DNA of 62,639 bases, filler included, from Aduncisulcus paluster (lineage: Eukaryota): NCBI GenBank assembly GCA_024181965.1. It is 5 parts of 5 records of this genome, joined end to end, with 100 filler letters (N's around TTAATTAATTAA, not from the genome) between each part and the next. Parts side by side here need not be neighbours in the genome. Positions count along the whole stretch, not along the records: positions 31,579 to 40,973 come from BQXS01010895.1; 4 more parts are not named here. One strand, 5' to 3'. Positions within the stretch are counted from its first letter, which is position 1, and the number at the start of each line of letters is the position of its first letter. Shown in pieces: positions 3,593 to 58,533 of this stretch. The translations under genes and the position numbers were made by a program. The notes under the pieces are model-generated. The model was not told the DNA's origin. It saw nothing but the letters and a program-made list of their open reading frames with translations, and ran no database searches.

Positions 3593-3824
3593 AAGCAATA
3601 TAATATATTTTTATTTTTTATAAGATATTATCGACCTTCATTGATTCGTATTTGCACATTCTATTATCTATCTGCGGATAACGCATTTTATCTTTGTCTG
3701 GAAAAAGTGATTACGTGCAGAGGCTTTCCGAACAATAGAGGCGATTTGAACATTTGTCCATTGGAATAACCACCCAAATCGTGCTTTAAATTATTTCATC
3801 ACATCAATTTATTATAAAACAAAT

Positions 3825-6033: not shown

Positions 6034-7041
6034 ATAAAAATTTGAGCATAATATTAATAGCTATAATATACTCCTCCAAAATTCTTTTGTTTTTCACATT
6101 CTTCCTTTATTGCTGAGAGTGCAGAGATAAGTGAGAAAGAATCAAATGATTAATTTATTATTTTCCAGACCGATAAGTCTTGATATTCCATTCTTAAATT
6201 GCTTCTTTAATATGTGAGTTATAAGTTGATTCACAAAGGCAAATCTAGTATAAGCAAAGATGAAGAGAGGATGAACAAGAAAGAGTACTGTATCCTTCAA
6301 ATTTGTCCGATTTCTAACTTGATTCAAACCACACAACTATGCAGCAGTGAGTCAGCATTATAATAAATTCAGCATTATAAGAATTAGAATAATAGGAAAA
6401 AAGGGAAAGAAGAGAATATACTATAAAAAACCAAAAAAAGCAAAAAAAACACAAATAAGAATTATAATTAATTTCTTCCTATCCAGGTAGGAAATTGTAC
6501 AAAAATAGGGCTGTTAGCAAAAAAAAAAAAAAAAACTAAAACATAGGTTGGAACAATAATTTCATTGGCAACCAAGACTCTTGAGAAACTGGTTTAGATA
6601 CAGAATAAAATTATGAAAATAGACAACAAGAATTAATTTAAAGAGTATATTGTATCAATTAATATATACAAATAGTAATCTAAAAAGATTACTTTCGGGG
6701 ATAAAAAAAGATACATATTTATATTTTTTTTTGGAAGGTCTAAAAATAGAACAATCCAAAAATAGAATGATCAAGAGTCACAACAATACATTCAATTTGA
6801 ATTCAAATTATGCAATCAAAAAACGATTATAATGAACCTAAAAATAGAAACAAAAAAAGCTAGAATTAAAAATATTCAGTGGGGAGACATAGATGAAGAG
6901 AGACATTCAAATATTAGCATATCAATAAAACAAATAATATCAGAAAAGAGAAAAAAAGACCTTTAATGATGAATAAATTAATAAATTAATGAGAAAACAA
7001 AAAAAGAATAAAATGAGGTCTGGTATTTGTCTAAAAAACTC

Positions 7042-8635: not shown

Positions 8636-8735
8636 NNNNNNNNNNNNNNNNNNNNNNNNNNNNNNNNNNNNNNNNNNNNTTAATTAATTAANNNNNNNNN
8701 NNNNNNNNNNNNNNNNNNNNNNNNNNNNNNNNNNN
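8636..8735. other. Artificial contig spacer N44-TTAATTAATTAA-N44
   Basis: Identical 100-nt spacer with stops in all six frames occurs four times; flanking genes are cut at it. Confidence 0.97.
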
Positions 8736-11700: not shown

Positions 11701-12473
11701 AGGTCTGTTGTCTCGTCTCGTTTGCTATCTTGGATAACATTATAAGAAATGGATGACACTGGGGTATACGTTGAAACGGTATTCTCTTTTCCTTTGAAAT
11801 AAGAAGTCACTGAAGGTCTATGTTGCACCTGAGCATGGGGATGGGAAGTCTGATGGCTCTGTTGAAGGGCTAGCTCAAGATCAGGGATAATTTCCTCTTT
11901 GGGGGCTCCGGTAACATCGCACAAGAAAATTCTATTTGTGCAACATACAACAAGTCGTTTGCCGTTGGGAGTCCAGCAAATGGATTGAACCTCTCCATCA
12001 AGTGTTCTTTCACTAACAAGAGTACCGTTTACCGTTGACAGGATGAGAGAATCATCAGCATAAATTGTAGCGCATTGCATTCCATTTGGAGACCAAGCCG
12101 CATCTACCAAAGCAACCCCATCGGATCCACGAGTTTGGAGCTTCGATATATTAGTAAAATCTTCCTCGTCAATCTTCCATATTATTGCAGTACCACTAAT
12201 ATCAGCAGAAAGGAACACCAAACGTTTCGGATTCCATTTTATGAGACAAACCCTCTTAGAGTGCCCAGCAAGTGATTCTTTGACTGGCAAATCTGTTTGT
12301 GCGGCAACTCCCATTATTCTATAATCACCAGTCCGCTTAGTAGTCATTTTAACAACATCTAGAAGACCTTGGTCGCCTCCATAAGCTAATAAACTATGAG
12401 AAGTATTATATGCTGTACACCATCCGTGTGCACTATTCAAAAAAGGCACTTTTTTGTTTAGATATGCAAGCAT
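8736..12473 (-). CDS. WDR35: WDR35/IFT121, IFT-A complex subunit, 3'-truncated
   Basis: N-terminus MLAYLNKKV..GGDQGLL, WD40 repeats, EKTRLY..PEEPVVCSGY, KSLRDTKELL, NPHPLLWNLVAE, AVYFGEFEDAE..RPDLAV.LR.KLGDYF, matching conserved WDR35 blocks. Confidence 0.92.
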
Positions 12474-12485
12474 TTGTTGTCAAAA

Positions 12486-25212: not shown

Positions 25213-25312
25213 NNNNNNNNNNNNNNNNNNNNNNNNNNNNNNNNNNNNNNNNNNNNTTAATTAATTAANNNNNNNNNNNNNNNNNNNNNNNNNNNNNNNN
25301 NNNNNNNNNNNN
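25213..25312. other. Artificial contig spacer
   Basis: N44-TTAATTAATTAA-N44. Confidence 0.97.
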
Positions 25313-28300
25313 CCTTGAGAAGGAATTCAACCTCATCAGCAGGAAGTTTTCCCTCACGAGACATGATTTGAATGGTCATCTGAGCAACGAACATGATCTT
25401 ATGAGTTTCGAACAGACCAAGAGAGACGAAAGAATATGTGGCAAAAGTAATATCCTCAATAAGAATTTCGACACGAGCCTTAACATCATCACTTTTGCAG
25501 GCAGAACGCATAGCCTTGTAGAAAACAGTCAAGAAGGCACGCAATGAGAACTGATACATTGAATGGATGAAACAAAGAGAATTCATCAGGAAATAGAGCA
25601 TAGAAGAACGCGTGGCAACAGGTCTGTAAATTTCACGAGCAGCATTGATACTCTTCTCGGTAATCTGAGCTTCTTTAACCTTCTCAGCAATCTCGATAGA
25701 TGTGGCCTTAGTTGTCTCCAGATTCTCAATAAGGGCAGTATCATCAAGCATGGTTTCCTGCTTGGCGTTGGACAGAGTGTGAAGCAATTCATCCTCCAAT
25801 TTCTTCAACTTAATCATAAACTCATTTTGTTGTCTCATAAGTTCTCCCTTTTGCTGTTCCAGATCAGGTCTTTCCTCTGACACAACCAAGGCAAGGATCT
25901 GATCTTCAAGACCATCCTCGGTAACTGTAAAGTTCACAAGAGTGGTCTGGGCCTGGATTTCGGGAGTGTAGTGAGGATTCGCCATCTTTGTTTGGAGGAA
26001 CAATCTAAATTTAGGATCATACTCGATCTCCTTATCTCCGAGTTTAATGAATTTAGTTCTTCCCTTCTTAATGACATTTCTCTGGATCAATGGATCAAGC
26101 ACAGCATCAATGCTCTCTCCAATGTTCTCAATCAAAACAGGCTTTCCTTCACTCAGACAACGCTCAATGATATCAAGGTACTTGTTCTGTGTGAGCCGCA
26201 CGACTTCAAGACCGTTCTCAGATTCTTTCTCTTTGATCCACTGAATACCCTGAAGCTGAGGATCAATCATCAATGGCCATCTTTCACATGTAACAGTAAT
26301 GGCGGCATTCTCAATACTCACACGATCCTTGGGAAGCAACTGGTTGTTCCACTCGGCAACAGTAGCGTCATCGGTCAAAAGCTTGAGAGGATCACTATCG
26401 GGACTCATTGGGATCTTATATTCATCAATCTTTTCTCCCCACTCCTTTAACAACTCAACTCTGAACCGACTACTGAATGGACCAATGTATGAGATAAACG
26501 CAGATGTAAGAAGAATGTCTCCGACAAGAGTACTCTCACTGGCTTGGAGTTCAGTGATACTCTCTCCCCATCTTACCTTCTCACTACTAAGACCATTAAC
26601 CAAACGCTGGGCAAGGTTCAACTTACTTGAAAGAGCAGCAGCCTCAGTCACAATCCTGTCTCTGTTGGCAGTCTCGGTTCTTCTTTGGTCATCCAGATCC
26701 TTCACACGCTTCTCAAGAGCTGCAACCTTGGCATTAACCTTGGCAAGCTTCTCCTGGGCAGCTTGGAGCTTGACGTTAGCGTCTTCAAGTTTGTCTCTGA
26801 GAGGTTTCACGACACGATACACATCGAAGAACTTAACAATATTTCTGGCCCAATCACAGATACCGGCAGCGGCCACTGATTTCTTCTCCATCTTTTCTCC
26901 AATAAAATCTGGTTTGGAAACGTATGGCAAAACGGCAGAATAAACATCTTCAGGGATATGTTCCTTATCATATTCGATAAGTTTACGCAAGAAAGCATCA
27001 ACGTTACCCATCATTTTCTTTGCAGAAGCCCAGTTGAGATCACGATCCTTGGGAATACGTCCAGATGGAGAAAGCAAAATCATAACGGCATTCATAACCT
27101 CCTCAATTTCAGCGGCAGGTTTCTTGAAGGACTTAAGCTCAGTCAAGTTACCCTTATTCAATGTGTGCAGGGCTGCTTCAGCGCTCTTAAGGATAGGTTC
27201 GGCCTTGGAAAGCTCTTGTTCAGCCATAGCCTGCAAGGTTGACACTTCTTTCTCTTCAATCTCACACTTCGCCTTCTCAATATCGGCATTCTTCTTCACA
27301 GCATCAACTTCAACTTGTTCCTTCTTCACCTTGATAAGCAAGTTCTCGACATCTTTTTCCTTCTCGGCAACAGTGACCTGAGTCCGCTGGAGATCAGTCT
27401 TCAACAAAGCAACATCCTTTTCGGTCGTCTGAAGCTTCACAAGACCTTGATCAAGACGCTCAATCTTCTCTAACTTACTCTTTCGTTCGGATGACAACAG
27501 AGACTTGTACAGGGAGATAAGCTCAAGGAAAGACTTGGGTGTTGTGTAAGCTTTACGTCTCTCAACCTGGGCAAAGACTCCAGCCTTCTCGTTAACCATA
27601 CGATGGGCATCGGCCATGAACAGAGAGATAGATTCACGAATCTCATCGCCACCGAGATCAACATCGGCCAAGAATCTGTTGGCAACAGAGATAAGAGCGC
27701 TATGAGGCCATGGGTGGAACCAATCGATAGATGTGTTGTTCACAAGTGCAGGGAATCGACGGGCACGAATCCTGAAGTCATCTCCCACAGGTGAGAAACC
27801 AAGAACGACGTGGAGATTAGTCTTGACCTTGTTAATAAAGTAGTTCCAACAGTTATCGCGTGTATCGAAGATACCAGCTTGTTTGACTTCATTTCTAATA
27901 GACTCGATAATCTCATCCTCTTCATCATCATTGAACAGATCGGCAATGTTACCAGAAGCAAGCATATCGTTAATGTACACAAGGAATTTCTCATCGACAA
28001 TGTGCTGATCGGTGAACAGGAACATGATAGATTCTCCCTTTTGTCCACACTTTCTATAGAGGCTCTGAAGATCAACCTTAAACTCGTTAACTCCATAGTT
28101 GGAGGTCAAGGAGATCTGGAACACTTCGTATCCAGCAATGTAGGCGGCCAAACGGGCCAAAGACTGCTTACCACTACCTCCCACACCGACTAGCAGTGCA
28201 GAACCGGTCTGGATAATTCTGTTAATACGGGCAACGTGCTCCATAGCGTCCTCGAAAAGCACAAGATCCATGACAGCATTTTCTTCATTGTACTGTTTGA

Positions 28301-31300
28301 GAGCATCCTCCAAAACTTGAGAAAGGCCTGGGAATCCATCCTTAATCATAGAATAGTCCGAATCTCCGATACCATTGGAGAAATTGGTCCATATAATAGG
28401 AGACTCGTTCATGGACTCCAATTCTTTCCCTTCAAAGGTCTTCTTCACGACCTCGGCAATGAGATGTTCGTAGGTCTGCATATCATCAACGTTGACAAGC
28501 CTATCCATGTAAACACGTGAACACTCGTGCTTCCATAGTTTGCAGAGAGCATGGGTGTCCGGGACGGTTGTTCCAGAAGCATTGAGAATACCACCGACAA
28601 TGTTTGAGAGATCACGAAGATTGAACTGGTAGTGGAACTTGATAGCAGTAGGAAGGAATGTTGTTGATACCTTGGAGTGGAGAGACAGGAGTGCATCGGC
28701 AACAGTCTCGCTCATCTTGGCAATATTGGGTGCGAATGAGTCCTGGCTAAAGTGACCAGAAAGCAAGGATCCATAAATCTGTTTCAAGTTGGATTCTGAT
28801 GGAAGATCGACAGCGAACAAAGAGAAATGTCTCTGCAAACGCTGGTTAATATGGAAAGAACCAGCCAAAGGATTCAAAGCGGCGGCATATTGAACGTTCT
28901 TGACTTCCTTAAGAGCCAATTTGGACCTATCGTACCACGATTCATAGTCAATGTGCTGACGTAAAAGAGTAATAGGGGCCTGAGTACCGTAAAGATCGAC
29001 TTTAGCCATGTTAAGGTCATCCACAAAGTAGATGAGCTTCATTTGACCAGGAGGACCGAATGTTCTACCAGCTTTCTTCTCAAGTGGACCCTCCATGATG
29101 GTCTGAAGCTGCATGGTTGTTGTAAAGTAATTCAAATTGATGACAACATTCTTGAACTTCTCTTCAGGCAGCTGGGCCAATCTATTCTTTAGGATACCAG
29201 TCTTTCCACTTCCTGCTGGACCAGCCAACAAGACAGGGAAACCAGCATTAAGCATGAGATCGATAATGTAAGAGAGACGAGTAGTTGTAGCAGTTGGAAC
29301 GAATGTCGCTTGAGCAGGGAGCTCAGGATCATACTTGAATTTATCAACCTTGTCACTCCAGGGGACCCACAAGTGCACCTTCTCTTCATTGACAACAATG
29401 GCCTCAGCAGGAATCTCAGGTTTCTGTTCAACTCCTTCTTCAAGAGGTTCTTCCTCCTCATCCTCGGTGGGAACATAGAACTCAGAAATGTCACGCATGT
29501 CGAGACAGTAGTCGAATACAGATCCCTCAGAAGGAAGAGCAACCTGTCTAAACTCAGTCCTCCACCATTTGTTGAACTTCTCAGTCCAATCAACACGTTG
29601 GCCCTTGAACATAACACCACCAACAGCCCAAATGACAGCAAAAACGAAATACAACTCATAGAGCTCCTTCTCAGCATTGTCAGGAACACGAGATGGGATG
29701 ATAAGTTGCTCAAGGATACGAACAACAGTTTCAGCAATGGCGATATCAGTAACTGGAAGAACGGGATCGAATTGTCTCTTGAGAGCTTCAAGGCAGGGAG
29801 CAAGGAAGGTCTCAAACATGAGAGTCAAGTGGGCAGTCTCATGTTGATTTTCCCTCTTCTCCATCCAAGAGTGAGTGAAGGCTCTCCATCCAACATCTTG
29901 CTCAGAAATGTACAAGATACCAGCACGGGACACAGTAGCGGGAGTAGCGTGTTTCAAGTGGGAGATCTCAAAGAGAAGACGCATGTGTGGATGCAATGGC
30001 ACACGTTCGTTGGAAGCCAATGTAAGCACCTTGTTGGCATCCATAACGGTATTCAGAGACTCAATCCAAAGAGAATCGATATCACCATCAAGAACAATCC
30101 ACTTAGGTTCAGTGTTGGGTTGGTTGGCGAGGTCTCTCATAATACAACTGAAAAGACCATCTCTCCATTCTCTTGTGGCAGATTGAACGTAACCATACAT
30201 CTCTCTGGTGGTAACAGCCTTGGGGTTGATGACAGGAGTTTGGATCTTCTTACCCTGGATTCTGTAAGAATTGGCAAGAGTTCCCCAACATTTAGACTTT
30301 CCGACACCAGCATCTCCGATAAGCATGACAGAGTGACGAACATCAACCAACTCTTGGAGCTGCACAACCTTCAACACAAATGATGGCTCGGCCTGGAGTC
30401 CTTGGTTCTTCAAGGCTTGAACAATAGTCTTCTCCAAATCGGGGTAAGTCTTACGAGGAACATCAACACCAGGGAACAAATCGTTGATAAGACCCATAAA
30501 GATGTCGACATCTTCAGTAATAATCTTGGGAATATTGAAATCACGAAGAGCACGACACAGAACGTTTTCTTCAGGCATCTCAGGTTCAGCACGTTTAAGA
30601 GAACCAGCAACAACCAACACAGCGTTCATGGCACGAAGACCCCAATCGTATTGATCACACTTAGACAACAGTTCTCTATTAAGGGAATACAAGGTTGTGA
30701 ACTTCTTAGACAGCAACCTAGCACCCAAGAAACCTTGGGCAAGAAGCATAATCTCTGCAATCATAGCGTAATCGGGCACAATCATACTCACAGATCTGAA
30801 CAGAGCCTTGATATTCTCGGGCAATTCAGTACGACCAGCATAACCAGGATTCATAGTGATAAAGATACCAACGGTACGTCTCAAGGTAATGTCAAACCCT
30901 TCGAACATGAAACGATCCTTCCTCTCTCTGACAGCATCAATGATGGTCTTCACCTGGGTGGCCACAACTGACAACACCTCAACGTTGATTCTGTTAAACT
31001 CATCGAAACAACCCCAGGCACCGGAAGAAGCCAGACCAGCAAACAGCTGACCCATAGAGGTGGAACTCATCTCAGGGGAACAGTTGGACACATACACAAT
31101 CAAACCAAGGGCACGACCAAGATCCTTTGTAGTCTCGGTTTTACCGGTACCGGCGGGACCGGCAGGGGCTCCTCCCATACACAAATGGAGACTCTGAGTC
31201 AAAGTAACGTAACATCTATCAGTCAGGGGAGTAATAACCAGACGATCTCTGTTACCAAGGTACTCGTATTGGTATTGGAATTGGGCATCACAAATATTAA

Positions 31301-31478
31301 TGAAACAATCCCTGTCAGTATCATCCCAACGAAGTCTCAACTGAGATTGCCACTGGAACTCATTGGCACTCTCAACTCTGTTCTTAACCAAACCTCCGAC
31401 AACATCCTTGGCATGCACTTCGATTGTACAGATTGTCATAATCTTGGTACGTTCCATCTTGGTCAAATCACCTTGAAT
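25313..31478 (-). CDS. Axonemal outer-arm dynein heavy chain, beta-type (DNAH9/11/17-like), internal fragment from AAA1 to past AAA5
   Basis: P-loops GPAGTGKT, GDAGVGKS, GPAGSGKT, GVGGSGKQ; WGCFDEFNRI; KIMTICTIEVH; PLEKKAGRTFGPPG; stalk coiled coil; RWPLMIDPQLQG. Truncated at both ends. Confidence 0.96.
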
Positions 31479-31578
31479 NNNNNNNNNNNNNNNNNNNNNN
31501 NNNNNNNNNNNNNNNNNNNNNNTTAATTAATTAANNNNNNNNNNNNNNNNNNNNNNNNNNNNNNNNNNNNNNNNNNNN
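31479..31578. other. Artificial contig spacer
   Basis: N44-TTAATTAATTAA-N44. Confidence 0.97.
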
Positions 31579-31854
31579 GAAAGAATATGAAGTCTAAAAA
31601 TAGAAATGAGAAAAATTGAAGAGTTAGAGAATCATTCAGAAAGCGTTGGAATGAATGTCTATTTTTAGAAATTCGAGAAAGAAAGGGGAAAACAACGGTA
31701 GGCTTGGTTCTAGGGGGGAAGTGTCACCTTCTCAGGATGTTCTAATTATAGAACACAAGCCTTTTCGTTTATTTAGTAAATTGTAACCAGTCAACAAGTT
31801 TGATAGGATTTTGATCAAAATGTGGCCAAACTAACTATAATGCGGTCCAATTTA

Positions 31855-32220
31855 TTAATAAACAGATCTCGAGCGAACCAATCTATTTTTAGAATGTCCC
31901 TGAGAATGGTCACCACACTTCTCTTCAATTCCTTCTCTTTTCTCGACGTCAATTGTTTCTTCGAGAAGTTTTTCATTTTTCATCCTCAGCTCTTCTAATT
32001 CCACACTTCTTTCTAAATATTCCCTTTGTTTAGCCTCAAATTTGGATAGGTCTTTAAGGTACATTGCCTTATACGTCTCCAATCTTCTGGGTTCTATTAG
32101 GTTAACCCAGGATTCCCGTCCACCCCTATTTTGGTATACCTTTAGTTCCGAGATGAACTTTGTCCAATTTTTCCGGCTTAAGGGACCAAGTTTCGGTGTT
32201 GAAACTTCCACTGAAATCAT
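31855..32220 (-). pseudogene. Short ORF, possibly a truncated gag-like/transposon-derived remnant
   Basis: 121-aa ORF with a plausible start context, lying just downstream of tRNA-Tyr near a contig end. The gag-like impression (PKL..W..F...K.Y..RGG) is weak. Confidence 0.3.
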
Positions 32221-32393
32221 GTTAATAATTTAAGAAAAAAATCGATAAACTAGAACGCTAAAACGAAACAAGTATTAATACTGTAGTTTGATAGCGGAGC
32301 TAGATCTATAACTGAGCACAATTTACTATATCTAATCGATCCATATCTAGTTCCGGCAATGTTCCACATGCCACAGTGGCAAATTATTAAAAA

Positions 32394-32475
32394 TCCTTCC
32401 ACCCGGACTCGAACCAGGAACCCTCTGATTTCTAGAAACTACAGTCAGATGCTCTTCCAATTGAGCTATAGAAGG
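32394..32475 (-). tRNA. tRNA-Tyr(GUA) with 9-nt intron (32430-32438)
   Basis: CCTTCTA/TGGAAGG-A acceptor (C1-G72, A73), GCTC D stem, TCTGA-CTGTAG[TTTCTAGAA]A-TCAGA, CCTGG-TTCGAGT-CCGGG. Confidence 0.95.
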
Positions 32476-32816
32476 TCAAATAAAATTTTATTTAAAATAT
32501 TTAAATAAATTATTCTTCCTTGTTTCCTAGAAACTTTCCTTTTTCACTCGATTTAATTTGTTATTTGTAAATGACTTGTATAATTACTATAAAATATTAG
32601 TCTATTTTTGAGAATTTGATAACCCTGTCAAAGGGTATTTTTATTAAACGAAAATTGAATAAAAGAAAAGTTATTCCTATATAAGCAGTTAAGGCAATTG
32701 TAATTTTGCTGGTTTTCAATCCCAAACTAATGGGATGAAGAAAGAAGGCAGAAAGATATTTAGAACAAGAAAAAGGATAATTCTGATAGATAAGGGATAT
32801 GAAATGTTTTTCTTTT

Positions 32817-33962
32817 TTACATTTCAGGAGAAGTGATTTGCTCGGTCACTTGATAACAGACAGGAGAGTCAGAGGTCAAAGAGACCTCGAATTCAAATTC
32901 TTCCTCGGCCTTTGATGACAAAATGAGAGCGACCCACCTGCTTTCTGAGATTTTAGTCGATAATTCTCCACCCTCGATGCTCTCGATTGAAAGACCATCG
33001 AGGGATTTGACAGGGAATTCAACATCGTCTCCAGAGACAACAATTGAAGCAATGCGTTCATCAGAGAAGGAAGCTGAAATTTCAACATCTGGCTTCCCAG
33101 AAATGAGAATCTGAGGCATAAGTTTAACATTCTTTCCATCTTCACTCATCGTGACAGGATCATATCTGTATGTTTTGGTAACTTTTTCCACCATGAGATG
33201 TTCAGTGACAAGAACTTTATGGTCGTCCTCATCACGGTCATCTCCTTCGAGATTAATCGCAAAGACACCGGAATCCTTGACTTCTTCCTCCTCCTCCTTT
33301 TCGGCGATCTCACTGGCGATGGAATTCTCAGATTCAGCATAGAGATCTCCAGAAACGTCTTCTTGCTCGCCTTCAGATGGTTCCTTGTCTAATGGAGCAA
33401 TGAAATTCTGTTCAGTGACTTGGAAACAGACGGGAGAATCGGAAGAGAGAGTAACATCGAAACTAAAGTCTTCGGTTGATGTAGAGGACAGAACAATGGC
33501 GACCCAGCGGTTAGAAGTGATTTGAGTTTTAACCTCAGAACCTTCGACTCTCTCAATTGGATGTTCGGCTCCATATGATTTAACAGGGAACTCAATTTCT
33601 TCACCTTTAACGACATAGGATACAACACGAGGATCAGATACATTAACAACGACTGAAACATCAGGTTTACCAGAAACAAGAATCTGGGGCATAGTTTTAA
33701 CGTTCTTTCCAGATTCATTCATCATGGTTGAAAGGAATCTATATGATTTAGTGACGGTTTGGACCATAAGATGTTCTGTAACAAGTATCTTAAGATCCTC
33801 TTCTTCACGATCCTCTTCACCAAGATGGATACTAAAACCATTAGTCTCCTGTTGGGGCTGACTCTGGGCTGGAGTGGTTTCTTTGGTTAATTTGGTTTGT
33901 TGTGAGGGTAAAACTTCAGCTTCTTCAGGATTTGTTGCTGCTTTGCTATTGTTACAACCCAT
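32817..33962 (-). CDS. Predicted myristoylated/palmitoylated (MGC) acidic protein with two ~145-aa homologous domains
   Basis: MGCNNSK start; repeats LVTEHLMV..VTK.YR..KNVK.MPQIL.SGKPDV..RWVA..LSS..SDSPVC.QVTEQ offset by 191 aa. Confidence 0.88.
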   Translation of the reverse strand: MGCNNSKAATNPEEAEVLPSQQTKLTKETTPAQSQPQQETNGFSIHLGEEDREEEDLKILVTEHLMVQTVTKSYRFLSTMMNESGKNVKTMPQILVSGKPDVSVVVNVSDPRVVSYVVKGEEIEFPVKSYGAEHPIERVEGSEVKTQITSNRWVAIVLSSTSTEDFSFDVTLSSDSPVCFQVTEQNFIAPLDKEPSEGEQEDVSGDLYAESENSIASEIAEKEEEEEVKDSGVFAINLEGDDRDEDDHKVLVTEHLMVEKVTKTYRYDPVTMSEDGKNVKLMPQILISGKPDVEISASFSDERIASIVVSGDDVEFPVKSLDGLSIESIEGGELSTKISESRWVALILSSKAEEEFEFEVSLTSDSPVCYQVTEQITSPEM

Positions 33963-34730
33963 GTTTTTGTTTAATTCACCAAAAATTCTGAAAATATAAT
34001 TCTGATTTGATAGAAAATAAAAAAATCTTGTTCAATGGTATCTATTACTTCTATGAAGAAATTTGACTATGAAATATTTTATTCATCCCAAAAACCCCTT
34101 TCTATTCCATGTTCAAGAGGAAGAACCCAGTCTTTTGTTCATCCATTCCCGAAATAATGAATAAAAATTAGATAATTGTGATAAAATCATATATCTATTA
34201 TTCTTTGATTATGATATCCCAGTAAAAAGTGTTGGAATTACAGGAATATTAGTTTCGATGGTTTTGCCTATTGTAATAACACACACATAAAATGAGTAAT
34301 TTTTCTTGTTGGTACTAACGTAATTTTATCATAATTTTAAGGGATTATCGATCAAAATAACATTCTTTGCTTACTTTTTTTGGCAGTATTCGTATTGATG
34401 CTGTGAGGTTGTTTATATAGTTATATTTCCAGCTTATTTTCAATGAATAATAATGTTACACTTAAATATTTGTTTTTTATTTTGATTCCTCGATTTTTCC
34501 AACCTAAAAACAGTTCCATTTTTTTTGGTGATAGTGCAAAATGTTTTGAAAATAATTTAAGGAAGAAAATAAATAAAACAACATCAATCATATTGATACC
34601 ATCACATCTATCCTCTTGATTCACCAGTCTTCTCATTGTTCTCACTTCTTTTGCCAAAATCGATTTTGTGGCAATCTATTATTACTATTGCTGAGTTATT
34701 GATCTATATTATAATCTATACTAATTGACA

Positions 34731-37700
34731 ATGGCAAATCGACCTTTTTTGTCATCAGAATTCGTCATTGTTATCGAAGAAGGAAATACTTTAGATCCTA
34801 TTAAAGCATGGGTTGGAGAAGTATGTTTGCAAAATTATCTTTAGTACAATTATCTTTTAAAGTGTATTGTCATATATTTATTTTGTTTTTTTATGTTTTT
34901 TCTCTGATTTAGATCGTTCCATCATGGACAGTTCCCAAAACCCAATACATAGAAAAGACAATAGACAACCATATTATATATCCAATTAGGCAATATCCAA
35001 TTGTGAAGTATGTTAATTTATCCTTTTTTTGTGCAAATTTGCCGCCAAGGTAATTTTATTCATTTTTTACATTTTTATCACATTTTTCTTCTGTTTTCTC
35101 CAGTCCAACAACTCCGTTATTCATAATTGATCCACTTCAAACAATCATGCTACCACTTTCATACATTTCCACAATTCGTGATCGACTTCCACCCGAAAAT
35201 AAGGAATCCTTCGTTAATTCAGTTGATTCGGCACTTCCTGTTGCTACCTTTAACGCTGAAGTTATCCCTAGCGATGGATGCTTCTGTGTTGGTGTCCCTC
35301 GAATCCATCCTCTCATTAAACAGAGGTTAAGTGTATCAAAACAACATCAACACGGTTGTTCTTCATCTATTACTGAACATAAGGTCACGGAAGAACGAAT
35401 TGAAGGTGTTGATGTTTCCTTGTCAGCCCTGCCAAGCTGTTATCCCGAACCTTCTCCAGAACAATTAAAATCAAATCCTCTTTTTCAATATCATGCTCCC
35501 TATGACCTTCCAGTGCCCAAATATACCCCATTTGACTCTCTTTTGCCTGCCTCTTCCACTCGTACCCTTGTTCCTGTTTCCCACGTTGTTATCTGCAGTG
35601 TGTGTGGCGAAAAAGAGGATGGATTGGGTATTAACGGGAGTGGCACTGGGTGGAGAGGACGCTTAGATTCTCTCGTAGAGGAAGAAGAAGGAGATGAACC
35701 GACCCAATCCCATGAAAAGCTCATCGGGTCAGATAAGGACGAAGAAGAGGATGTAGACCAGTCAACCCAAACGCCTACAGCCGACTCCCGAGCTGTTGAG
35801 TCATTAAAACGTTCCAAAGCACCTAAGTCCAAGTCGTCAACAAAGGAATCACATGCTTCTTCCGTACATTCCTCTGTCAATTCCACTTCCAAACGAATGA
35901 ATCGGTCATCGTCAAGAATTAATCGGAGCAAGCTTGGAAACACCGTGTGTTGCCTCTGTTCTGGTGATTTTGTGACAATTCGTGTTGGTGGCAAACGTTG
36001 GAGTGATCAAGGAATGCCCGTTGAATCCTTTGGAATGACTGGAAAGAACTTGTTCCAGGGGGAATCGCATCCCGAGGAAGGCAGTCGCCGTCGTAGCCTT
36101 CGTTCTGGACATAATGATGAGGCGGACCGGGGCAAGAGTCGTGGAAGATCGGCCGGGAGAAGCAGAAAAGCCGCAACCATGAACAAGGACACTGGGGATA
36201 AGTCAAAGGAAGTCACGAGGAAACCTGTGAGTATAGCACCATCATCAAGCTCTGTGGCCTCTCAGAAGAGTTCCCTGTCTTCTTCTTCTACTTTGTCCCA
36301 TGATTCAACCATCACAAGCATCCATGATGGCCCCATATCCTCCCCTTTCCCATTATCTTCCTGTCTATGTGGGGCATCAGAAGCCATAGTTAGACAGACC
36401 GGGGGAGAGTGGATTCCTTCGCTGGGTGAACGTGTTTCCCCTATTCCTGGAAACCAGTCTATTTTGGATAGCAAACCTGTTGCACGGAAGCGTGGAAGAG
36501 GGAGAGGACGCCGCGGACGAGGTCGGTCCACAAGGTCTTCCGTTGGGAGGTTGCCCAAAGGGAAAGATGTGTTGTCAAATCCTGGCGTTAACAGCCAAGA
36601 ACTTGGATACTTGCCGACTCAGCCTGATGCACCCACACTTTCTGCCCATCCCCTTGTCATTTCCTTACTAAACACGCTATTTCAGAGTGATTTTACTGGT
36701 CAGGGACCATGTGGGGTTGGTTGGGGTAACTGTGTTCTCTGTGGTATCGTTAGAAGAGTTTGTGCCTGTGCTGGTGTCGTTGAACTTTCTCAGAATGCTA
36801 TTTCCAACCCTGATCAGACTCTCGCACCGCCCGCCTCAGATGTTCCAATGAATAAGTATCCATTTGAATCCATGACTAGCCTGTCCCCTCCTTCTCTACT
36901 CACACACACCCCAGGGAGAGCTCTATGTTTTATCACTGTGGAACTGTGTATTCCGACACGTAGGAAAGAGCGTGAGAGGTGTTTGGACTGGGAAATGGAA
37001 GCAGAATGGTCTCAATGGGAACGAAATGGATTACGTAGTGACTCTGTTCCAAGAGAGACCATTTCCCTCCGTGAGTGGCAGAAAAGGATGTCCGAATGGG
37101 AAAAAGAGATGGAACGCTGGAAGAAAGAACAGATTGCTCGTGGGCACATTGGACCTTCGGATAATTCTTCAAATGCAGTCCCAAGATCTGGTAGTGGTTC
37201 TCCAGAAATAAGATTTTCCAGTGAGATTCCCTCTTCTCCTTCCCCTCTCTTCTCTCTCTCTCTTTCCTCCATATATGTTGATATTCCGGTGTATGATCCA
37301 GGGCTTGGGATTCATATCAGACGGTGGGGAAGAGCCAAAGAGATCGTCAGGCCTGCTCCCGACGGTGTCGTTGGAGACAATTCCTCGGATTCACACCGAT
37401 TCCTATATATAGATGTTGATGATATCCGTGAGATGCAAACAGATCCTTCGCTTTCTAATAATCCAGTCCATTCTGACGGTGTGGGTCTCTCAGGGGAACA
37501 TAAACCCCAGACTGTTCCATCAGAACCTCAACCAACCTCTCTTCCATCCATGGAATCAACAGTCGCTGCTCAACATCAATATCAAGACAAGGGGCAACTT
37601 CCTACTATACGGGCATCCAATAGAGATATCGATATCAGGGAGGTTGTGCTTCAATGGGGAGGTCAAGAGAAAGGAATAACTCAGGACTTGGCCAATGCTG

Positions 37701-40700
37701 TGGCAAACGTAAGGGATGAAGAGCTCCGTAGTGCTCAATCATCATCCCAACCAGAGATCGAAGCTGACACCACTTCCGTCACTTCCTCGATAACGTCTCA
37801 AGTCCAGCAACACCAACAGTCTGCTACTTCTTCTTCTCCCACGTCAGCTAACAAGAAACGTCGTCGAAGTGAACGCAAGAGTGTGAGTGGTCTCTTCAGT
37901 GATCGTCTCTCTCCGTCTCCTCCGTTGGCATTCGAAGAACACCATGGCATTAGGGTTCGTGGACATTCATCTGGTGCTTATAGGAATTGTAAGTATTTGC
38001 AATCCTCTTTCACAAGCCCCATCTCTATTCCTCTCTTCTCATCCTTTTCACTCTCCCAGACATCGAGTTTGGGATCACTTGTGGCTGTGGAACAACAGTT
38101 CAGAACCACAAGTTCCACTCCTGAATCCAAGACTGATATTAGCAAGGGAAAAGGACGTGGAGGCCGTCGTTCCTCTGCTCTTTCTTCCCCATCTGCTCTT
38201 TCTCCTCCTTCTCTTCCTCTTATCCACAGCAGAACAGTGCATAAAACACGTCTGTCCACTCTCTCAACGTTCTTCTCACCCCTCTTCCCTTCCTTGATGA
38301 AGGTAGCCTCTGATGACATTCCTTCCGAGCCCATTGAGAGTATCACGAAGGATGAAGAAGAGCAGAAGGAAGAGCTGCGTCGGAGAGAAGTCATCAAGGG
38401 GTTGAAATCCTTGCCCCATGTGAATATTGCTACCTGCCTGGATGTCATTCAGAGAGAGAAAGAGGCGGAGAAGAAGAGGGAAGAGGAGAAGATTGAACAG
38501 GAGCTGGCAGCGGAAAAGGAGGACCAGTCGAGAAGTCGTGGAGGTCGTGGAGGTACTCATAGAGTTCAGAGGAGGAAGAGTACCCGTTCGATATCAAACA
38601 GATCTCTTGGCAATGTTGTCAGCAGCGTATTGGTTAACCTGGGAGAGTTACAGACGCCTAACTATGCTGATCTTCTCGATTGTACTCCATCCGATGTTGC
38701 TACTACCCCGTGTGTCTGTTGTGGAAAAGATATCTCGAATCTCTTTCATCAATCTGTCCCTTGCTCCAGCGAGTGTGTCTGTATGTGCCAAGGATGTGAG
38801 GCTGAGTGGGTGAGAAGACAAAGTAATATCAAAATGGGATCTGAATATAGTCATGACTCATTGAGTTCCAAGGACTCAAAACTCCCTTGTATTATAACAG
38901 ATATTTTCAACAGAAGAAATGATGTAGAATTTAACGGTCATTCTTGTTCATGTCATTTATGTGAAAGTGAGGTTGTTGGAAAAGATACTCAGAGTTCTAT
39001 AAATAGAATCGCAAAGAAAAAAGAGGAAGAGGAAGAACTAATTGAGACTTTACCTCAAGGTCAATCTGGGGAAGCACCCTCCAAACAACTTCTCAGCTTT
39101 AACTCAACAAATTCTACAAATGACACCCATGTAAAATTAGCTCATAAGGATGAAGAAGAGGAAGAGATTGGGGTTCAAGAGGCCTCTCAACTTATTAAAC
39201 CTTCTGAACCTATGACCAAGAAGGGAAGAAGAAGAAGAAGAGGAGGAAGGTCAGAAAGATACATTACATTGTTCCCAAATCACATCACTCTGTCCTCTTT
39301 GTGGACATGATATTCACCATATTTGCTGCTTAATGCAGTCAAGAACAGCCATTCCTTGTTTGTCTAAGGCATATCCCCTTTTTTGTTGTCCAAAATGCCA
39401 GCGACTGTTGGAGGAAGGAGTTCATTGGAGGAAGAACACGACGTCTATTGCTGAATCTAGTCTATTTATAGCACAAATGCGCGCTTATCTTGCCCATTGT
39501 GATGTGGAAGGTGTTGATGCCGTGTGGGAGGCCAGACAACGCGAGGAAAAGATGTGGGAGCTTGCCCAGGACAAGTGGAATGAAGAAAAACAGGAATGGA
39601 AGCCGGAAGGAGAGAAAGGTGTGGATGATTCCACCATTAAGAGAGAGCTGCAAGAACCAAGAATAGATGTTGAGAAAGTTGAAGATGGAGAAAAAGATGA
39701 AGAAGAAGTAGATAAACAACAATTGCGGAGTTCTTCTCAAAAGAATCATGAAGAGGAAAGTGAGGAATCAAAGCAAAAGAAACCTGACATTTCTCCCCTT
39801 GGATTCTTGACTAAACTTCCTTTGTTGTCAAGAGTGTTCCCTCGTTTTCAGAAGATTAGAGAAGAAGCCACAAAGACCAGCGAGCATACTGTCCAATATC
39901 TCTCGGATCGACTCTCTGAAGAAAGGAAGGAGAGATCTGCAATGGTTGAGAGAGAGAGACAATTATGGATATATGGGTACATTGATGAGTCGTCTGTTAA
40001 ACAAGAAACCTGTGATCATGATCCCTCTGATGCTGATATGGACATTGGAGTGTCTAATACTACGTCAAATACTGTGGCACAAGATCAGAAGTCTGATCTC
40101 ACCCCTTCTAAACTCTCTGCTCTATCTGTACAAACTCCTTTCCTCCCGACTGAGGACTCTCTTAACATCCAGCTGTTCCAGCATGCCAAAGCCTGTCTCA
40201 CGCTCTGTGATGTGAGGGAAGAAGAAGAAGAAGAAAGGACTGAGTGATCGAGGAGATTATGGGAAAGCGGGGAGATGGAGTCTTTTGTACATGTACAGAC
40301 AATTGTGTGGGATCTGGCTTGAATGTGATGACAGAGAGGAAAGAATCCATGAAAGGTTTGTGTATCACAAGGAACAAGAGAGATACTCCTCTCGAATCAG
40401 AGAATTGGAAGCATGGAAAACATTGATGCTTGAGAGTGCAGAAAAGTCACTTCCACCTATTCCTTCTCCACCTCCTCCCCTTCCTCTACCTCCTCCACCG
40501 CCGTCTGCTATTTTACTGGTATCCCATCCTCCCTCCAACCTTCTCTCTGCTCCAAGTTCCTTGATTACGTCGTCATCAACCGGTCAAACATCTTCCCTCG
40601 CTGCGTCAGAATTATCTGCTCTCCTCTCCATCCCACCATCTTCCTTGTTCGATGTGATTAGAGATGTTGCTGACGGTTCTATGGTGTATGATTCAGATGT

Positions 40701-40973
40701 AATTCAGCCCATTGTTGACTTTATTCTATCGTTGTCCACCACCCTAGCTACTCTTGTTATCACCCCAGCTTTTATTGAGTCATCTCCAATCATAAGTCTT
40801 TCAAAGCAACTCATGTCCCATTCATTTGCACCGGCATCATCTGCTTCCAATCATCTTTCTGTATCATCTCTTTTACTCTCTTCCTCTTCCATCCCATCGG
40901 CAAGTTCCTTGTGTCGGCATGGCATTGTGAGTTTCGAGATTGAGATGCTTAGGCGGCTGTGTGTTCGTTGGTG
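34731..40973 (+). CDS. Very large Cys/His zinc-finger (PHD/ADD-like) low-complexity protein; 2 introns, 2 apparent +1 frameshifts, 3'-truncated
   Basis: Exons 34731-34820, 34913-35007 and 35104- join in frame with the 1387-aa ORF. The PHD pattern CHLC / CPLCGHDIHHIC / CPKC spans ORFs 35147 and 39333; ORF 40285 continues in the next +1 frame. Confidence 0.7.
34821..34912 (+). other. Spliceosomal intron, 92 nt, phase 0
   Basis: GTATGT donor, T-rich body, TTTAG acceptor; removal keeps the frame. Confidence 0.85.
35008..35103 (+). other. Spliceosomal intron, 96 nt, phase 2
   Basis: GTATGT donor, polypyrimidine tract, CCAG acceptor; removal joins the frame of the 35147 ORF. Confidence 0.85.
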
Positions 40974-41073
40974 NNNNNNNNNNNNNNNNNNNNNNNNNNN
41001 NNNNNNNNNNNNNNNNNTTAATTAATTAANNNNNNNNNNNNNNNNNNNNNNNNNNNNNNNNNNNNNNNNNNNN
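40974..41073. other. Artificial contig spacer
   Basis: N44-TTAATTAATTAA-N44. Confidence 0.97.
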
Positions 41074-42711: not shown

Positions 42712-43828
42712 ATGATAAGTGAAATAGCAAGGTACCATGAAATGGTACAAACATTAATATATAATCCGTGCCCAGATAGTATGTTTTGTAACTTCATTTC
42801 TACACAGTTCAATTTAGATGAGTTATCTCTCTTAAAGTTCAAATTGAATATTTAATTTACCTATTTTTCTTTTTGCAATACTTTTTATTGTTAATTCAAT
42901 AGGGGCAAGGAGACTTAAATTGGCTGTTGCTGCAACGAATGAAAAAATTGTTGCCGCCAAAGAAAAACTTAAAATATTCTTCCAATATAATATAAATCAT
43001 ATTCAAAAAGCAGAGCAAAGCATACAAAAAAGTAAGAGACATATCAGTGAGATTGAAATTCAGCAAGACCAAAATAAGCCTTCAAATCCATCTCCATATC
43101 CAATATATCCCGATCCACATGGGTCCATCGAAATGCCTGAACATATGAGACGAGCAGAGATCAAAAAATGGCGTGAGCAAAGAGATAGAGATTCGAAAAC
43201 AGCTTCATCATTAAGTGCTAAGAAATCTCTTAACAAAATGTATACGAGGCCCAAAACTTCCACATCAAAGAGAGAACTTGAAAAATGGAGAGAAGATCGA
43301 CAAAAAAAGCTCGACGATAAAGTTGAAGAGAGGAAAAAAACATTGGTCAAAGAAAAAGAATCCCAACATAAAAGCCAGAGAGAATGGAAAATCGATTTTG
43401 AAAGAAGAGAAGAAATGAAAAAAATGAAACGTGCTTTAAAACTTGACGAAGATAGGAAATTAGAACAGAAAAGAAAAAAGATTGCCAGAATCCGTGCTGA
43501 CACCGCAACTCGACAATTGATTAGGCGTCAAGAAAAAGATATCATTAAGGCCGAAGAAGATTTTAAAAGAAGACAAAATGATCCAAAGCGAATGCGAGCC
43601 AAGAGAAGAGCTATCGAAGCCCAGCGTCAAGCCACGGAGGAAGTTATGCTTCAACTAAGACGAGAAGGACGGGAAGTTTCCAGAGATCCCGAAAGAATAC
43701 ATTTATTGACAGCAGCTGGTAAACATCGTATGGTTGCTTTAGTTGAGGGTGAAGATAAGACAGTGCCCCAAGTAGGCCTATTTTATAAACAAAAGCCTAT
43801 GAGAGCAACACCAACATGGATGAAATGA
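42712..43828 (+). CDS. CCDC112-like coiled-coil protein (1 intron)
   Basis: C-terminal VSRDPERI..LT.....RATPTW matches the CCDC112 VSRDPSRL..PT..RAIPTW motif. Exon 1 (42712-42778) joins in frame through intron 42779-42902. Confidence 0.75.
42779..42902 (+). other. Spliceosomal intron, 124 nt, phase 1
   Basis: GTATGT donor, T-rich body, AATAG acceptor; supplies an ATG exon to an ORF otherwise starting at TTG. Confidence 0.8.
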
Positions 43829-53265: not shown

Positions 53266-53530
53266 GAGTCTGTGTCAAGAAGATCTTTTTTGCTAAACTG
53301 TCAGAATCATTAATAATATCACTTTTCGTACAATAAAATTTTTTTATTGGATGTCAATATTAATAATATTTGATTAAAATATGTTCTAATGTTGGCTTTT
53401 GGATAGCAGGCAACCAGCTTGCAGCAAAGACCCATTTTGGTTAACACCAGGATTTTATTTTTGTTATATTTTTTCATATTTTCTATACATTTATTCATTT
53501 TATTATATAAATTAATCGTTATAGTTTATT

Positions 53531-56500
53531 ATGACCGTTGAAGAATCAGATTTCTCGGTTACTGTTAGAATAAGACCTGAATTACCTAGTGAAGGTGATA
53601 GTGGTTGTTGGACAAATATCATTCGCAAAGTTGATGATCAAGTTCTCGTTTTTGATCCTTCTCCGACCATATCTCGGCGGAAACCAGTTGCCTCAAATCC
53701 TGGTGATAAAAAATTCAAAAACAAGGCGTTCAAATTTGATAAAGTATTTGGAGAGGATTCAACTCAAGAAGAGGTGTTCTTAAATACTGCCCAACCTCTT
53801 ATTGGTGCTGTTCTTGATGGATATAATGCCTCTGTCCTTGCTTATGGTGCCACTGGAAGTGGAAAGACATTCACCATGTTAGGTGCTCCTAGTGGTGGCA
53901 GTGGAATCGTATCACTATCTTTGGGTGAACTTTTCCGTCAAATAGAAGCTTGTAAAACTCATACTTTCTCTGTCTCTGTGTGTGCCATTGAGGTTCACAA
54001 TGAGATATTAATAGATTTACTGAACTCTGGAAATTCCAAAAGAAAGTTAGAAGCTATGGAAGATGAGGAGAACCCACGTGGAAATAAGCAACCTGCTCAT
54101 AAGAAATTCTCAAAAAAAGCATTCTCCCATCGTGGAGGATCTCATTCGCCATCCCAAGGTTTAGATATTCAAGAAGAATCCAATGGAAATGTTGTTGTGT
54201 CTCCTCTAATCTCCCATCGGGTCAGCAATGTTCGTCAGGCCATGCGTGCTTTGTCTGTTGCCGCTGCTGCTCGTACCACACATGCTACTGAAGTCAATGA
54301 ACGTAGTTCCAGATCTCATGCTGTATTCCAAATATATGTTGAGAAATTTGAGAAAATTGGTGGAGTAATTAGCACTTTGTGTGTTGGAAAGCTTAGTCTG
54401 GTTGATCTCGCTGGAAGTGAGCGTGTCAAGCGTACAAAGAGCTCTGGGCAGCGTTTGAGAGAAGGACAAAACATTAACAAAAGTCTGTTGGCCCTTAGTA
54501 ATGTTATCAATGCTCTCTGCAGTAACTCGAAACGTTCTTCGTCGCAACCCCAAGCTCATGTTCCTTACCGTGATAGCAAACTCACACGCCTCTTGAAGGA
54601 CTCGTTGGGAGGTAATACACGAACATGTATGATTAGCAATATTTCTCCTTCTTCATGCTGTTTCGAAGAGACCTTTAACACTTTAAAATATGCCAACCGC
54701 GCAAAAGAGATAAAAATAACAGTCAAACGGAATGTGATTGATGTTAAACATCATGTTTCGGAGTATAAGAAAATGGTTGAGGATCTAAAAAAAGAACTCA
54801 ATGAGATGAGAAAAGAGAAGGCAGCTGAATCTGATAAGTATACAAAACTCCTCCAAGAACTCCAATCATTGCGGAGAGGAGGTAGTGTTCCATCCACCTT
54901 TGATCATTCAAAGATATCCCATTCTAAAAACTTTGAAAGGGAGTTAGCTGAGCTCGGTATGCTGAAGACAAGCGAAGCTGCTATGTCTGACATTCTCCAC
55001 CAATTGAGACCATTGTATGATGAACATATGCAACTCTTGAAAAGGCTCCTTGTAATGAAGAGAGAGAATATGGAAAGCAACGAAGCTAAACGCGAATCGT
55101 CTGCTCCCACTTCTTCCTCCTCATCCACAACATCTTTATCTGGCGGTGGAGCCTCTGTGCTCCCTCCCAAGGTTCCTTCAAACAAGTCCGCAATGGCTGA
55201 TGGCACATCGATACGTTCTGTCACTTCAGCTCTCTCTGAGGTTGTTGACTCCATCAGTATGGTTGTTGGAGAGTCTTCTACGCTTATTCCTCATTCATTT
55301 CACCGATTTTTGTTGAATATTATCACACAAACACACTCAGTTAGAGTCCGTGCTGCTGAACGTGAAGAAGAAGTGATCTGGCTCAGAGGTCAGCTGAGAA
55401 GATCGAGGGAGAGAGAAGAGAAATTGAGGAGACGAGAGGCAGAAAGGATACAGACTCAGCTATCGAGCACCACCGCAAATTCTAAGATAGTGGAACACCA
55501 TCCTTCTGTCGTGTTTAATACTCCTGGACATGACGTAGCTTCTTCGGCTTCAAATGGACAGATTTCATACGGTAAATTCAATCCGTTCCATTCAGCTGCA
55601 ATTCGTACACCCGATATCCTTGGAGTTCTTGATAGAACTGAGAGACGTCGCAGAGGCGAGGATGTGAGTGGCGATCGTCGTGCCATGCGGCAGAAAGATC
55701 ACGAGGAAGAAGAATATATCCGTTCCAAGAGAAGAAGTGGTTTAATGGCTGGACATTCTGGAGAGATGGAGGAAATTGAGGAACGGTTGGAGAGGAAACG
55801 TGAGAAGAAGAAGAGGGATCTTGTGGATAGCGATAAAGATTCTCGGCCGTTAAGTGCCGACGGGTCCATATATCGTACAGCAATATCATATCATTCCCCT
55901 GATGACTCCCCGAAGGGAAGAGGCTCAAGGCGTGACCATAAGAAACCCTCGACAGCTCCTAGCAAACCTTCTGTGGGTCTTAACAGTGGAGGAGTTCTAG
56001 AAGCTAACTATGGAAAAGCTCCCGTTCGTTTGTATGGTCCTACTTCCCCTCAGTCTCGTTCTTCCAATACCAGTACCAACACTAGCGGTGCCGTTGAAGA
56101 TGCCATGATGAGTGTATTTAGTTCTGTTGTTGAGGAAGAGGACAATAGACGCCGTGCAGAAGAAACACGCAGGAAAGAACAGAAGTCTCGCGATGACAAG
56201 GTCAAGGCCCTTGAAGAGAAGAGGAAGATGCAACTGAAACAGCGTGAACTCAGTCGAGCTGATAGTTCCATGAGTGTCAATTCAGGGGACAAAACATCTC
56301 AGCATGCTCATATTCCCCTGAGTGGTCATGTTATGCCTCAAGGAGTTATTTCAAGCTCTGCTCCTAAATTAACCACCTCAAAGACCAAGATGGGATCATT
56401 CAAACGTCTGGTGTCTCCTCGTGGGATAACGGAGAGTAGGGAACAACTTTTGGCCAAAGCTGCTGCAAATGGAACAGCAGACAAACCATCATCCCTGGCG

Positions 56501-58533
56501 TCTCAAGGAAAACCTGTGATCACTGCCGATGGATCTATTTCACAACAGGCATATTCACATCTTGCCAAGCATCATGGACTCTTTTTGAGAAACAATGTTG
56601 TCAGACGTCGTAAGAAGAATAATGATGGTGCTGCTCCAACCATACAGAAATATGGGACTGCTGATGTCAAGAGAACTCAAGATAAGTCTTCTAAGCATCC
56701 AGGCTCACCCAGTAGTCTGATAATGAAAGGAAAAGGGCATACTTTGGGCAGTTCAATCCACAGCGGTGGTAAGCAACCTAAACACAGCAGTGCGAAGGAG
56801 GTTCTTTCATCCCTAAAATCTCACCATCATCCTGCTCCCATTTCTTTCACTCCTGATGCTCTCAAGAAGGCTAAGAGAAGGAAGGAGATTGAAAGTGAAT
56901 GGCGTGCAAAGAAAGAGCGTAGGGAACAAGAAATTAAGGAACCTATTGGTGGCAAAGGGGAAGAAACCAAAGGCAAAGACAAGCAAGGTAGTGAGCAGAA
57001 GAAAGTTCCAATTCTTCAGNNNNNNNNNNNNNNNNNNNNCCAACCATACAGAAATATGGGACTGCTGATGTCAAGAGAACTCAAGATAAGTCTTCTAAGC
57101 ATCCAGGCTCACCCAGTAGTCTGATAATGAAAGGAAAAGGGCATACTTTGGGCAGTTCAATCCACAGCGGTGGTAAGCAACCTAAACACAGCAGTGCGAA
57201 GGAGGTTCTTTCATCCCTAAAATCTCACCATCATCCTTCTCCCATTTCTTTCACTCCTGATGCTCTCAAGAAGGCTAAGAGAAGGAAGGAGATTGAAAGT
57301 GAATGGCGTGCAAAGAAAGAGCGTAGGGAACAAGAAATTAAGGAACATATTGGTGGCAAAGGGGAAGAAACCAAAGGCAAAGACAAGCAAGGTAGTGAGC
57401 AGAAGAAAGTTCCAATTCTTCAGTCAACCTCTGTTGATGGATCTTCCATTCTTGATGCTGTATTTGGCGATATCACTGCTGTTCACCCCCACCCTCCGTC
57501 AACTCCTCCTTCAGGGCGTACGTCTTCACTCTTATCTCTGCAATCATCACATTCCCAGAAGATGAGAAGGAGATTGGTCTCACCAGGATATAACATCTCT
57601 GGGGATTCCTCTGCTATGGTTGATATCACTTCGGGGGCTGCTACACCCACCGTTCCACACCCAGGCAACAGAAAAGCAGGTGTGGATGCTACTCCTAAAT
57701 CTCAGTCCGCCGTTAGTTCTGGACTTCCAGTCTCTCCATCTGATCGATCTGATAGAGTTCGTACGACACACATTGATGTTCAATCATACGATGAACGGGA
57801 CTCTGCCTCAAGAACTGGAAATACAGGCGTGTGCACAGTGTTCGAGACTCGTGAAGCTGCTGATATCAGTGGTGAGATTCCGTATGAAAGTGGAGTTGCC
57901 GGGATTGGCGCAGGATACGTGAGTGCAGCCATTGAATGCAGTGAAAGTGACGATGATATTGAGCTTAAAGTGTCTGAAGTGCACGATGGACATGGATCTG
58001 GACCAAAGAATAATCCTGACATCAATAGATATCGTGTCCAGAGCTATGTTGCAAGCTCTCAGCAGCAGCGGCAACATCCATCAACATCGACATCTTTGGT
58101 TGGTGGTGCCATTCTAACGGCATCCAAGCCTGTGTCTCAAGAAATAATTCCATCTCAACGCCACATCTCTGTCGATATTTCCTCTGAAGATATTGAGAGG
58201 GAACGAGGTGTCGGGGATGTATTCAGACAGCCATATAAACACCCACCTTCCGTGCGTCCTTTTACTGCAGCTGGGAATATATGGGGCATGAAGCCTCATC
58301 GTGGACCTGAAGAAATCGAACGTCCCCAGACTCAATTGGGAGTGAATCCAAAGTCAAAGGGTAGCCCTCAATTTGTTATGAAACCTTTTAGAAAGAAGAA
58401 GAGGAAAGAAAAGATCAAAATGATGGCACAAAAGAAGGATCAGGGAGGCAGACCCGTCTGGAGAATGCACTTGACTGGAAAATTACAAGAATTAGAAATG
58501 CTCGAGAAAATTGCGCATAAAGGGCGGAAATAA
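53531..58533 (+). CDS. Kinesin-8 family motor (KIF18/KIF19-like), one gene split by an assembly gap
   Basis: AYGATGSGKTFTM, SSRSHA, LSLVDLAGSER, EGQNINKSLLAL, HVPYRDSKLTRLLKDSLGGN, NTLKYANRAKEI..KRNV. Removing the duplicated overlap joins the two ORFs. Confidence 0.9.
56636..57423 (+). repeat. 384-bp duplication (56636-57019 = 57040-57423) around a 20-N gap; probable uncollapsed overlap
   Basis: Copies end exactly at the gap edges and differ at two positions (56834 G/57238 T; 56943 C/57347 A). Confidence 0.92.

Follow-up and report, generated by a model that had tools for sequence, protein, structure and literature searches.

The locus and its surroundings

The window analysed here, that is, the whole 62.6 kb stretch of DNA, comes from the draft genome of Aduncisulcus paluster and is a chain of draft contigs. 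Listing of its N runs and reading of the letters between them revealed four pairs of 44-N runs, each flanking TTAATTAATTAA, a stop in all six frames, and one 20-N scaffold gap at 57020-57039. The resulting N44-TTAATTAATTAA-N44 linkers occupy 8636-8735, 25213-25312, 31479-31578 and 40974-41073. The window is thus composed of at least five draft contigs, and the order and strand of genes on opposite sides of a linker do not reflect natural adjacency. A WDR35/IFT121-like frame (8688-12479, minus strand) and a MatE frame (7042-8679, minus strand), for example, appear to be neighbors, however a linker lies between them and they belong to different contigs. The contig at 25313-31478 (minus strand) is in its entirety one open frame (25257-31526, 2089 aa) cut at both contig ends, in which the stalk and the motor domains AAA1 to AAA5 of a dynein heavy chain are recognized; it holds only a piece of the gene. 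A kinesin-motor frame (53525-57124) overlaps the next frame (56995-58533, plus strand) around the 20-N gap, within the region 53525-58533, and this change of frame is most simply explained by the unknown length of the gap, not by biology. The longest homopolymer of the window, 17 A's at 6519-6535, is located between a helicase frame (3750-5729) and the MatE frame.

Products of the neighboring frames include GET3/ArsA, a DEAD-box helicase, a MatE transporter, WDR35/IFT121, dynein heavy chain and kinesin, among others; together with a reading in the standard genetic code, they indicate an intron-poor flagellate. An alternative code (table 6) was tried and rejected, as it merely extends frames into the AT-rich spacers. 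The standard code was kept because long frames stop at TAA, TAG and TGA alike.

The gene of interest lies on a draft contig of 9395 bases (31579-40973) situated between two of the linkers, and it is truncated by the right end of this contig; the artificial linker at 40974-41073 follows directly, and what lies to its right is another contig. In GenBank the gene is annotated on the plus strand at 34731-40973 as "hypothetical protein ADUPG1_008229, partial" (P0004, 1968 aa). Its product exceeds 2000 residues, has much low-complexity sequence and contains many CxxC pairs.

Frame breaks at a repeated 19-mer

Read without splicing, the main body of the gene is carried by three stop-to-stop frames in series: 35054-39310, 39216-40247 and 40216-41025. 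Modulo 3, these frames start at 2, 0 and 1, a step of +1 each time, as the earlier note had claimed. The second frame opens after a TGA at 39213-39215 and the third after a TGA at 40213-40215, both of which are read at these positions as that note described, while the first and second frames stop at TGA 39308-39310 and TGA 40245-40247, respectively. The third frame has no natural end; it enters the N linker at 40974 and terminates because the linker is reached and the contig is cut off. Successive frames overlap by 95 bases at the first site and by 32 bases at the second. From the positions of the TGA codons, the shift is confined to these 95 and 32 bases, and AGGGAAGAAGAAGAAGAAG is found in both intervals.

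This 19-mer occurs exactly twice in the window, both times on the plus strand, at 39222-39240 (site 1, the change from frame 2 to frame 0) and at 40215-40233 (site 2, the change from frame 0 to frame 1). The claim that the motif is seen nowhere else in the window holds for both strands with up to two mismatches allowed, and none of 100 shuffles contained two or more matches (mean 0.00). The two sites are also the only places in the window with (AAG) tracts of at least five units, as well as the only perfect trinucleotide repeats of at least 14 bases in its 62.6 kb; both four-unit AAG tracts in the window sit within single open frames. The codon phase of the incoming frame differs between the sites, AAG|GGA|AGA at site 1 and AGG|GAA|GAA at site 2, in agreement with what was noted before.

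When the sequence is left unchanged, the first stop is met at codon 1401 counted from 35104. Omission of one G at each site, as originally proposed, does yield a single frame, with 1955 stop-free codons between 35104 and 40973, where the contig ends.

The annotated gene model and its introns

The coding sequence of P0004, recovered by tblastn and an exon search, is join(34731..34820, 34913..35007, 35104..39249, 39344..40243, 40299..>40973), and this is the one GT-AG combination that reproduces the protein exactly within the ranges searched. The model therefore holds four introns, all on the plus strand. Intron 1 (34821-34912) is 92 nt long, starts with GTATGT, has a GC content of 0.20 and 82% pyrimidines before its 3′ AG, and contains stops in all three frames; intron 2 (35008-35103) is 96 nt long, also starts with GTATGT, and has a GC content of 0.27 with 86% pyrimidines before the 3′ AG. 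Judged from the sequence, both look genuine. Both are preceded by AA, start with GTATGTT, are very AT-rich and are pyrimidine-rich before the AG. As a general intron marker GTATGTT was not adopted, as 9 matches were found in comparison to 7.09 expected, which is no enrichment, and its use was confined to these two introns.

The other two annotated introns are of a different character. The third (39250-39343) is 94 nt long and starts with GTCAGA, and the fourth (40244-40298) is 55 nt long and starts with GTGATC; both lengths are of the form 3n+1, and the GC contents are 0.38 and 0.47 with pyrimidine fractions of 0.59 and 0.50. They are located just downstream of sites 1 and 2, respectively, and neither contains a stop in the reading frame of the exon that follows. 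The third contains the Cys/His motif CPLCGHDIHHIC. It had been stated that no credible GT-AG intron exists at either site; GT-AG pairs do exist just downstream and are used by GenBank, but these do not have the look of genuine introns, as discussed below. Very short introns at site 2 were also considered, from the GT at 40212 to the AGs at 40221, 40224, 40227, 40230 and 40233, which would have 3n+1 lengths of 10-22. These were rejected as they fall far below the 92-96 nt of the introns of this gene, and no GT lies within reach before the motif at site 1.

Comparison with independent read contigs

Two public sequencing runs carrying the A. paluster label and derived from one sample, here called X1 and X2, provided sequence independent of the assembly; X1 is taken to be DNA and X2 RNA, although both kinds are guesses. 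Contigs built independently from each run were compared to the stretch 38800-40700 (1901 bases), and such contigs omit rare variants. Sampled 31-letter words of this stretch are present at a share of 0.95 in each of X1 and X2, which is roughly the expectation if only the words spanning both sites are missing and is compatible with their absence, but is not proof of it. Not a single substitution separates the read contigs from the window over the 1901 bases.

At site 2 the window has GGG and five AAG units, whereas the contigs of both runs have GG and six. In terms of an alignment, AA is inserted behind 40217: in X1 record 2 at a depth of 1505.4, with two gap letters and no other letters, and in X2 record 9 at a depth of 139.2 of 139.2. 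The latter record covers the entire stretch without a break and counts 1905 letters to the 1901 of the stretch itself, with four gap letters. As two of these fall at 40217, a further gain of two must lie in one of two repeat stretches, 39011-39038 or 39215-39253; X1 record 1 is gapless over 38800-39214, which places the remaining two letters in 39215-39253, that is, at site 1. The X1 contigs end at 39214 and 39254, so site 1 is crossed by the X2 contig alone, with a net gain of two letters.

A gain of two bases changes the frame as a loss of one base does, and a gain of two at each site thus heals the frame. With AA restored at both sites, 35104-40973 reads through as 1957 stop-free codons in a single frame, in which site 1 encodes a glutamate run and site 2 a lysine run. 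With AA restored at one site only, stops persist, the first at codon 1401 or 1714. The read contigs accordingly differ from the window at the two sites and agree with it everywhere else, and the version that they carry removes the anomaly. The earlier note held that reads showing GG would point to an assembly error, and GG is essentially what is seen, directly at site 2 in the contigs of X1 and X2 and as two additional letters at site 1. One point departs from that note, in that two bases are missing, with a net +2 in the reads, where a single surplus G had been supposed.

A probable assembly error as the origin of both breaks

Taken together, the two frame breaks are very probably identical two-base consensus errors of the draft assembly and not instances of programmed frameshifting. 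At both sites the DNA of the organism most likely carries GG and then six AAG units, so that the assembly lacks two A's at each. As the local sequence is identical at the two sites, a deterministic fault of the assembler or of read correction is suggested, one that would produce the same wrong string twice. An error bound to the repeat string would strike exactly these two places regardless of codon phase, and the differing phase is consistent with a cause acting on the DNA string; the preference expressed earlier for a nucleotide-level cause over ribosomal slippage is borne out in this respect. That the contig version is the true one is suggested by how the two are made: every 31-letter word of a contig must exist in the reads, whereas a consensus from multiple alignment may emit a string that no read contains.

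The source of the fault is probably the assembler consensus rather than base calling. Of the earlier suggestion of a systematic base-calling error, the sequence error would thus remain and the base calling would not; of the choice then offered between error and recoding, error is the side supported by the X1 and X2 contigs, and recoding is left unsupported. The genome announcement describes a data set of Illumina reads only (150-base pairs, 69.9 Gbp), assembly with MaSuRCA 3.3.3, annotation with BRAKER2, and a draft of 25,863 contigs with an N50 of 4.6 kb, a GC content of 39.1% and 11,743 predicted introns. Neither its main text nor its Table 1 mentions polishing.

With the bases restored, a single exon would run without interruption from 35104 past the end of the contig, and the repaired gene would need no frameshifting, slippage or additional introns. 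The gene finder appears to have offset each error by an invented short 3n+1 "intron" just downstream, and these inventions would delete real coding sequence from the GenBank protein, the Cys/His motif included. Gene finders place short "introns" over frameshifts that result from short-read consensus indel errors at short tandem repeats. The passages returned by a literature search included none on spurious introns placed over frameshifts. The present case resembles such consensus errors in that the discrepancy with the read contigs coincides exactly with the repeat, the frame is restored in their version, the draft is unpolished, and compensating 3n+1 introns of coding-like composition are present. 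It is unlike them in that the same two bases are missing at two identical 19-mers of one gene, which gives an impression of design.

Alternative readings

The breaks may instead be real in the cells that were assembled, if these carried a disrupted allele or a pseudogene copy or formed a sub-population of the culture, with the X1 and X2 contigs representing an intact allele. This is improbable. Contigs show presence and not absence, so the GGG version could persist in minority reads or in a second allele, and the X1 contigs break exactly at site 1, as a variant bubble could cause. However, the break in X1 is explained also by the purine-only tract at site 1, which at 33 bases is longer than a 31-letter word, and X2 follows a single path through both sites. 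A broken allele would further require two identical and unusual lesions, in which AA and not a three-base unit was lost, in a stretch of 1901 bases that otherwise shows no differences. A strain difference is formally possible if the culture behind X1 and X2 differs from the one assembled, but the absence of any substitution across the same stretch argues against it.

The GT-AG introns annotated in GenBank at 39250-39343 and 40244-40298 could also be real and be spliced as annotated. In favor of this reading, the 3n+1 lengths restore the frame in the sequence of the window, and the genome announcement counts 11,743 predicted introns for A. paluster. When set against the standard of the two good introns of the same gene, these two do not resemble them: they start GTCAGA and GTGATC where the others start GTATGT, their GC contents are 0.38 and 0.47 against 0.20 and 0.27, and they lack a pyrimidine tract (fractions of 0.59 and 0.50, compared with 0.82 and 0.86). 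Both can also be read through in the frame of the exon that follows. No splice joint at either is present in the X1 or X2 contigs. On the sequence of the read contigs, removal of 3n+1 bases would itself break the frame. Real splicing at these positions is therefore very unlikely, and the assembly error remains the preferred explanation of both annotated introns.

Recoding, in the form of programmed +1 ribosomal frameshifting or of polymerase slippage on (GAA)n that rescues the protein from broken DNA, is very unlikely. It draws its appeal from the identical 19-mer at both breaks, with none expected by chance, and from the long open frames on either side. In the X1 contig, listed tentatively as DNA, the two extra bases are present at site 2, which leaves nothing to recode there; the status of the DNA at site 1 rests on parity with site 2. 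A break in genomic DNA was accordingly not seen, either in X1 at site 2 (its DNA label being a guess) or in X2, which shows the +2 at site 1. The codon phase is not the same at the two sites, which slippage by a tRNA would not tolerate. Known cases of programmed +1 frameshifting (bacterial prfB, antizyme, yeast Ty1, EST3 and ABP140, and Euplotes) share with this gene a recurring sequence and long overlapping frames; they have a fixed codon phase, usually with a stop or rare codon, whereas here the phase differs, neither kind of codon is in the A site, and the break is absent from the contigs guessed to be DNA.

Slippage during transcription would be nucleotide-level and independent of phase, as in the paramyxovirus P gene, bacterial IS elements and the poly-A tracts of endosymbionts. 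The tract here is a trinucleotide repeat, not an A/T run or homopolymer of the type known for transcript slippage, and the extra bases at site 2 are already in the X1 contig (DNA label guessed). RNA bases beyond those of the DNA were not found, as the same extra AA is in X1 and X2, whose kinds are guesses. A related variant takes the GGG version to be an abundant real allele, with the full protein produced by a +1 or net +2 change at GGG(AAG)5 that is indifferent to codon phase, such as stuttering of the polymerase on the purine repeat; it has very little probability. The companion supposition that the X2 contigs are RNA and the X1 site-2 contig comes from the other allele is likewise highly improbable.

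Last, three separate genes, one for each open frame, can be practically dismissed: only the stops themselves speak for them, while neighboring frames share 95 and 32 bases, no intergenic AT-rich spacer lies between them, unlike after the stop at 43826-43828, the second and third frames have no initial ATG (the third none before its 26th codon), and the read-derived version is a single frame. Three independent genes had been named as an outcome that would overturn the earlier reading, and these observations speak against it.

The encoded protein and a possible zinc-finger motif

No family could be recognized for the protein. No family was found in Pfam at E up to 1 for the products of the first two frames (P0001 and P0002), and the search of P0003 returned two sub-threshold chance matches. 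A search of PDB sequences gave no matches, and the Atlas gave no usable match. In the search for relatives, a word-indexed protein search matched P0004 alone (one match, for the middle frame), a near search gave none among 822 candidates, and the one match among 1.84 billion representatives was the same protein, P0004. It is also the only protein form found to cross both sites; no read-derived protein is on record.

RING-H2 fingers follow the pattern C-x2-C ... C-x-H-x2-H-x2-C ... C-x2-C. The second frame contains CPLCGHDIHHIC ... CPKC, which by eye we take to fit the last six ligands of RING-H2, and a CHLC lies in the first frame about 115 residues upstream of CPLCGHDIHHIC. The loop between them would be far longer than is usual for a RING-H2 zinc finger, no Pfam, PDB or Atlas match was found, and no curated profile matched P0001 or P0002 when the frames were searched separately. 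A zinc pattern split between frames had been put forward as a sign of continuity across site 1. The location of CHLC in the first frame and CPKC in the second is confirmed, and no Pfam family accompanies it; as CxxC pairs recur throughout the protein, the split motif argues only weakly for continuity, and the conclusion on the frame breaks does not depend on it.

Implications for the annotation of A. paluster

Windows of the A. paluster draft are strings of unrelated contigs with linkers between them, so nothing can be concluded from the proximity of two features on opposite sides of a linker. The relevance of the present case is for quality control only: two frame breaks that share one motif can be the mark of a deterministic assembler fault. 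About 50 residues, probably real, are missing from the GenBank protein ADUPG1_008229, which also carries two wrong joins, one of which removes the Cys/His motif. Some of the 11,743 introns counted in this genome may be similar patches over frame errors. Other introns predicted in this organism could be judged by comparison with introns 1 and 2.
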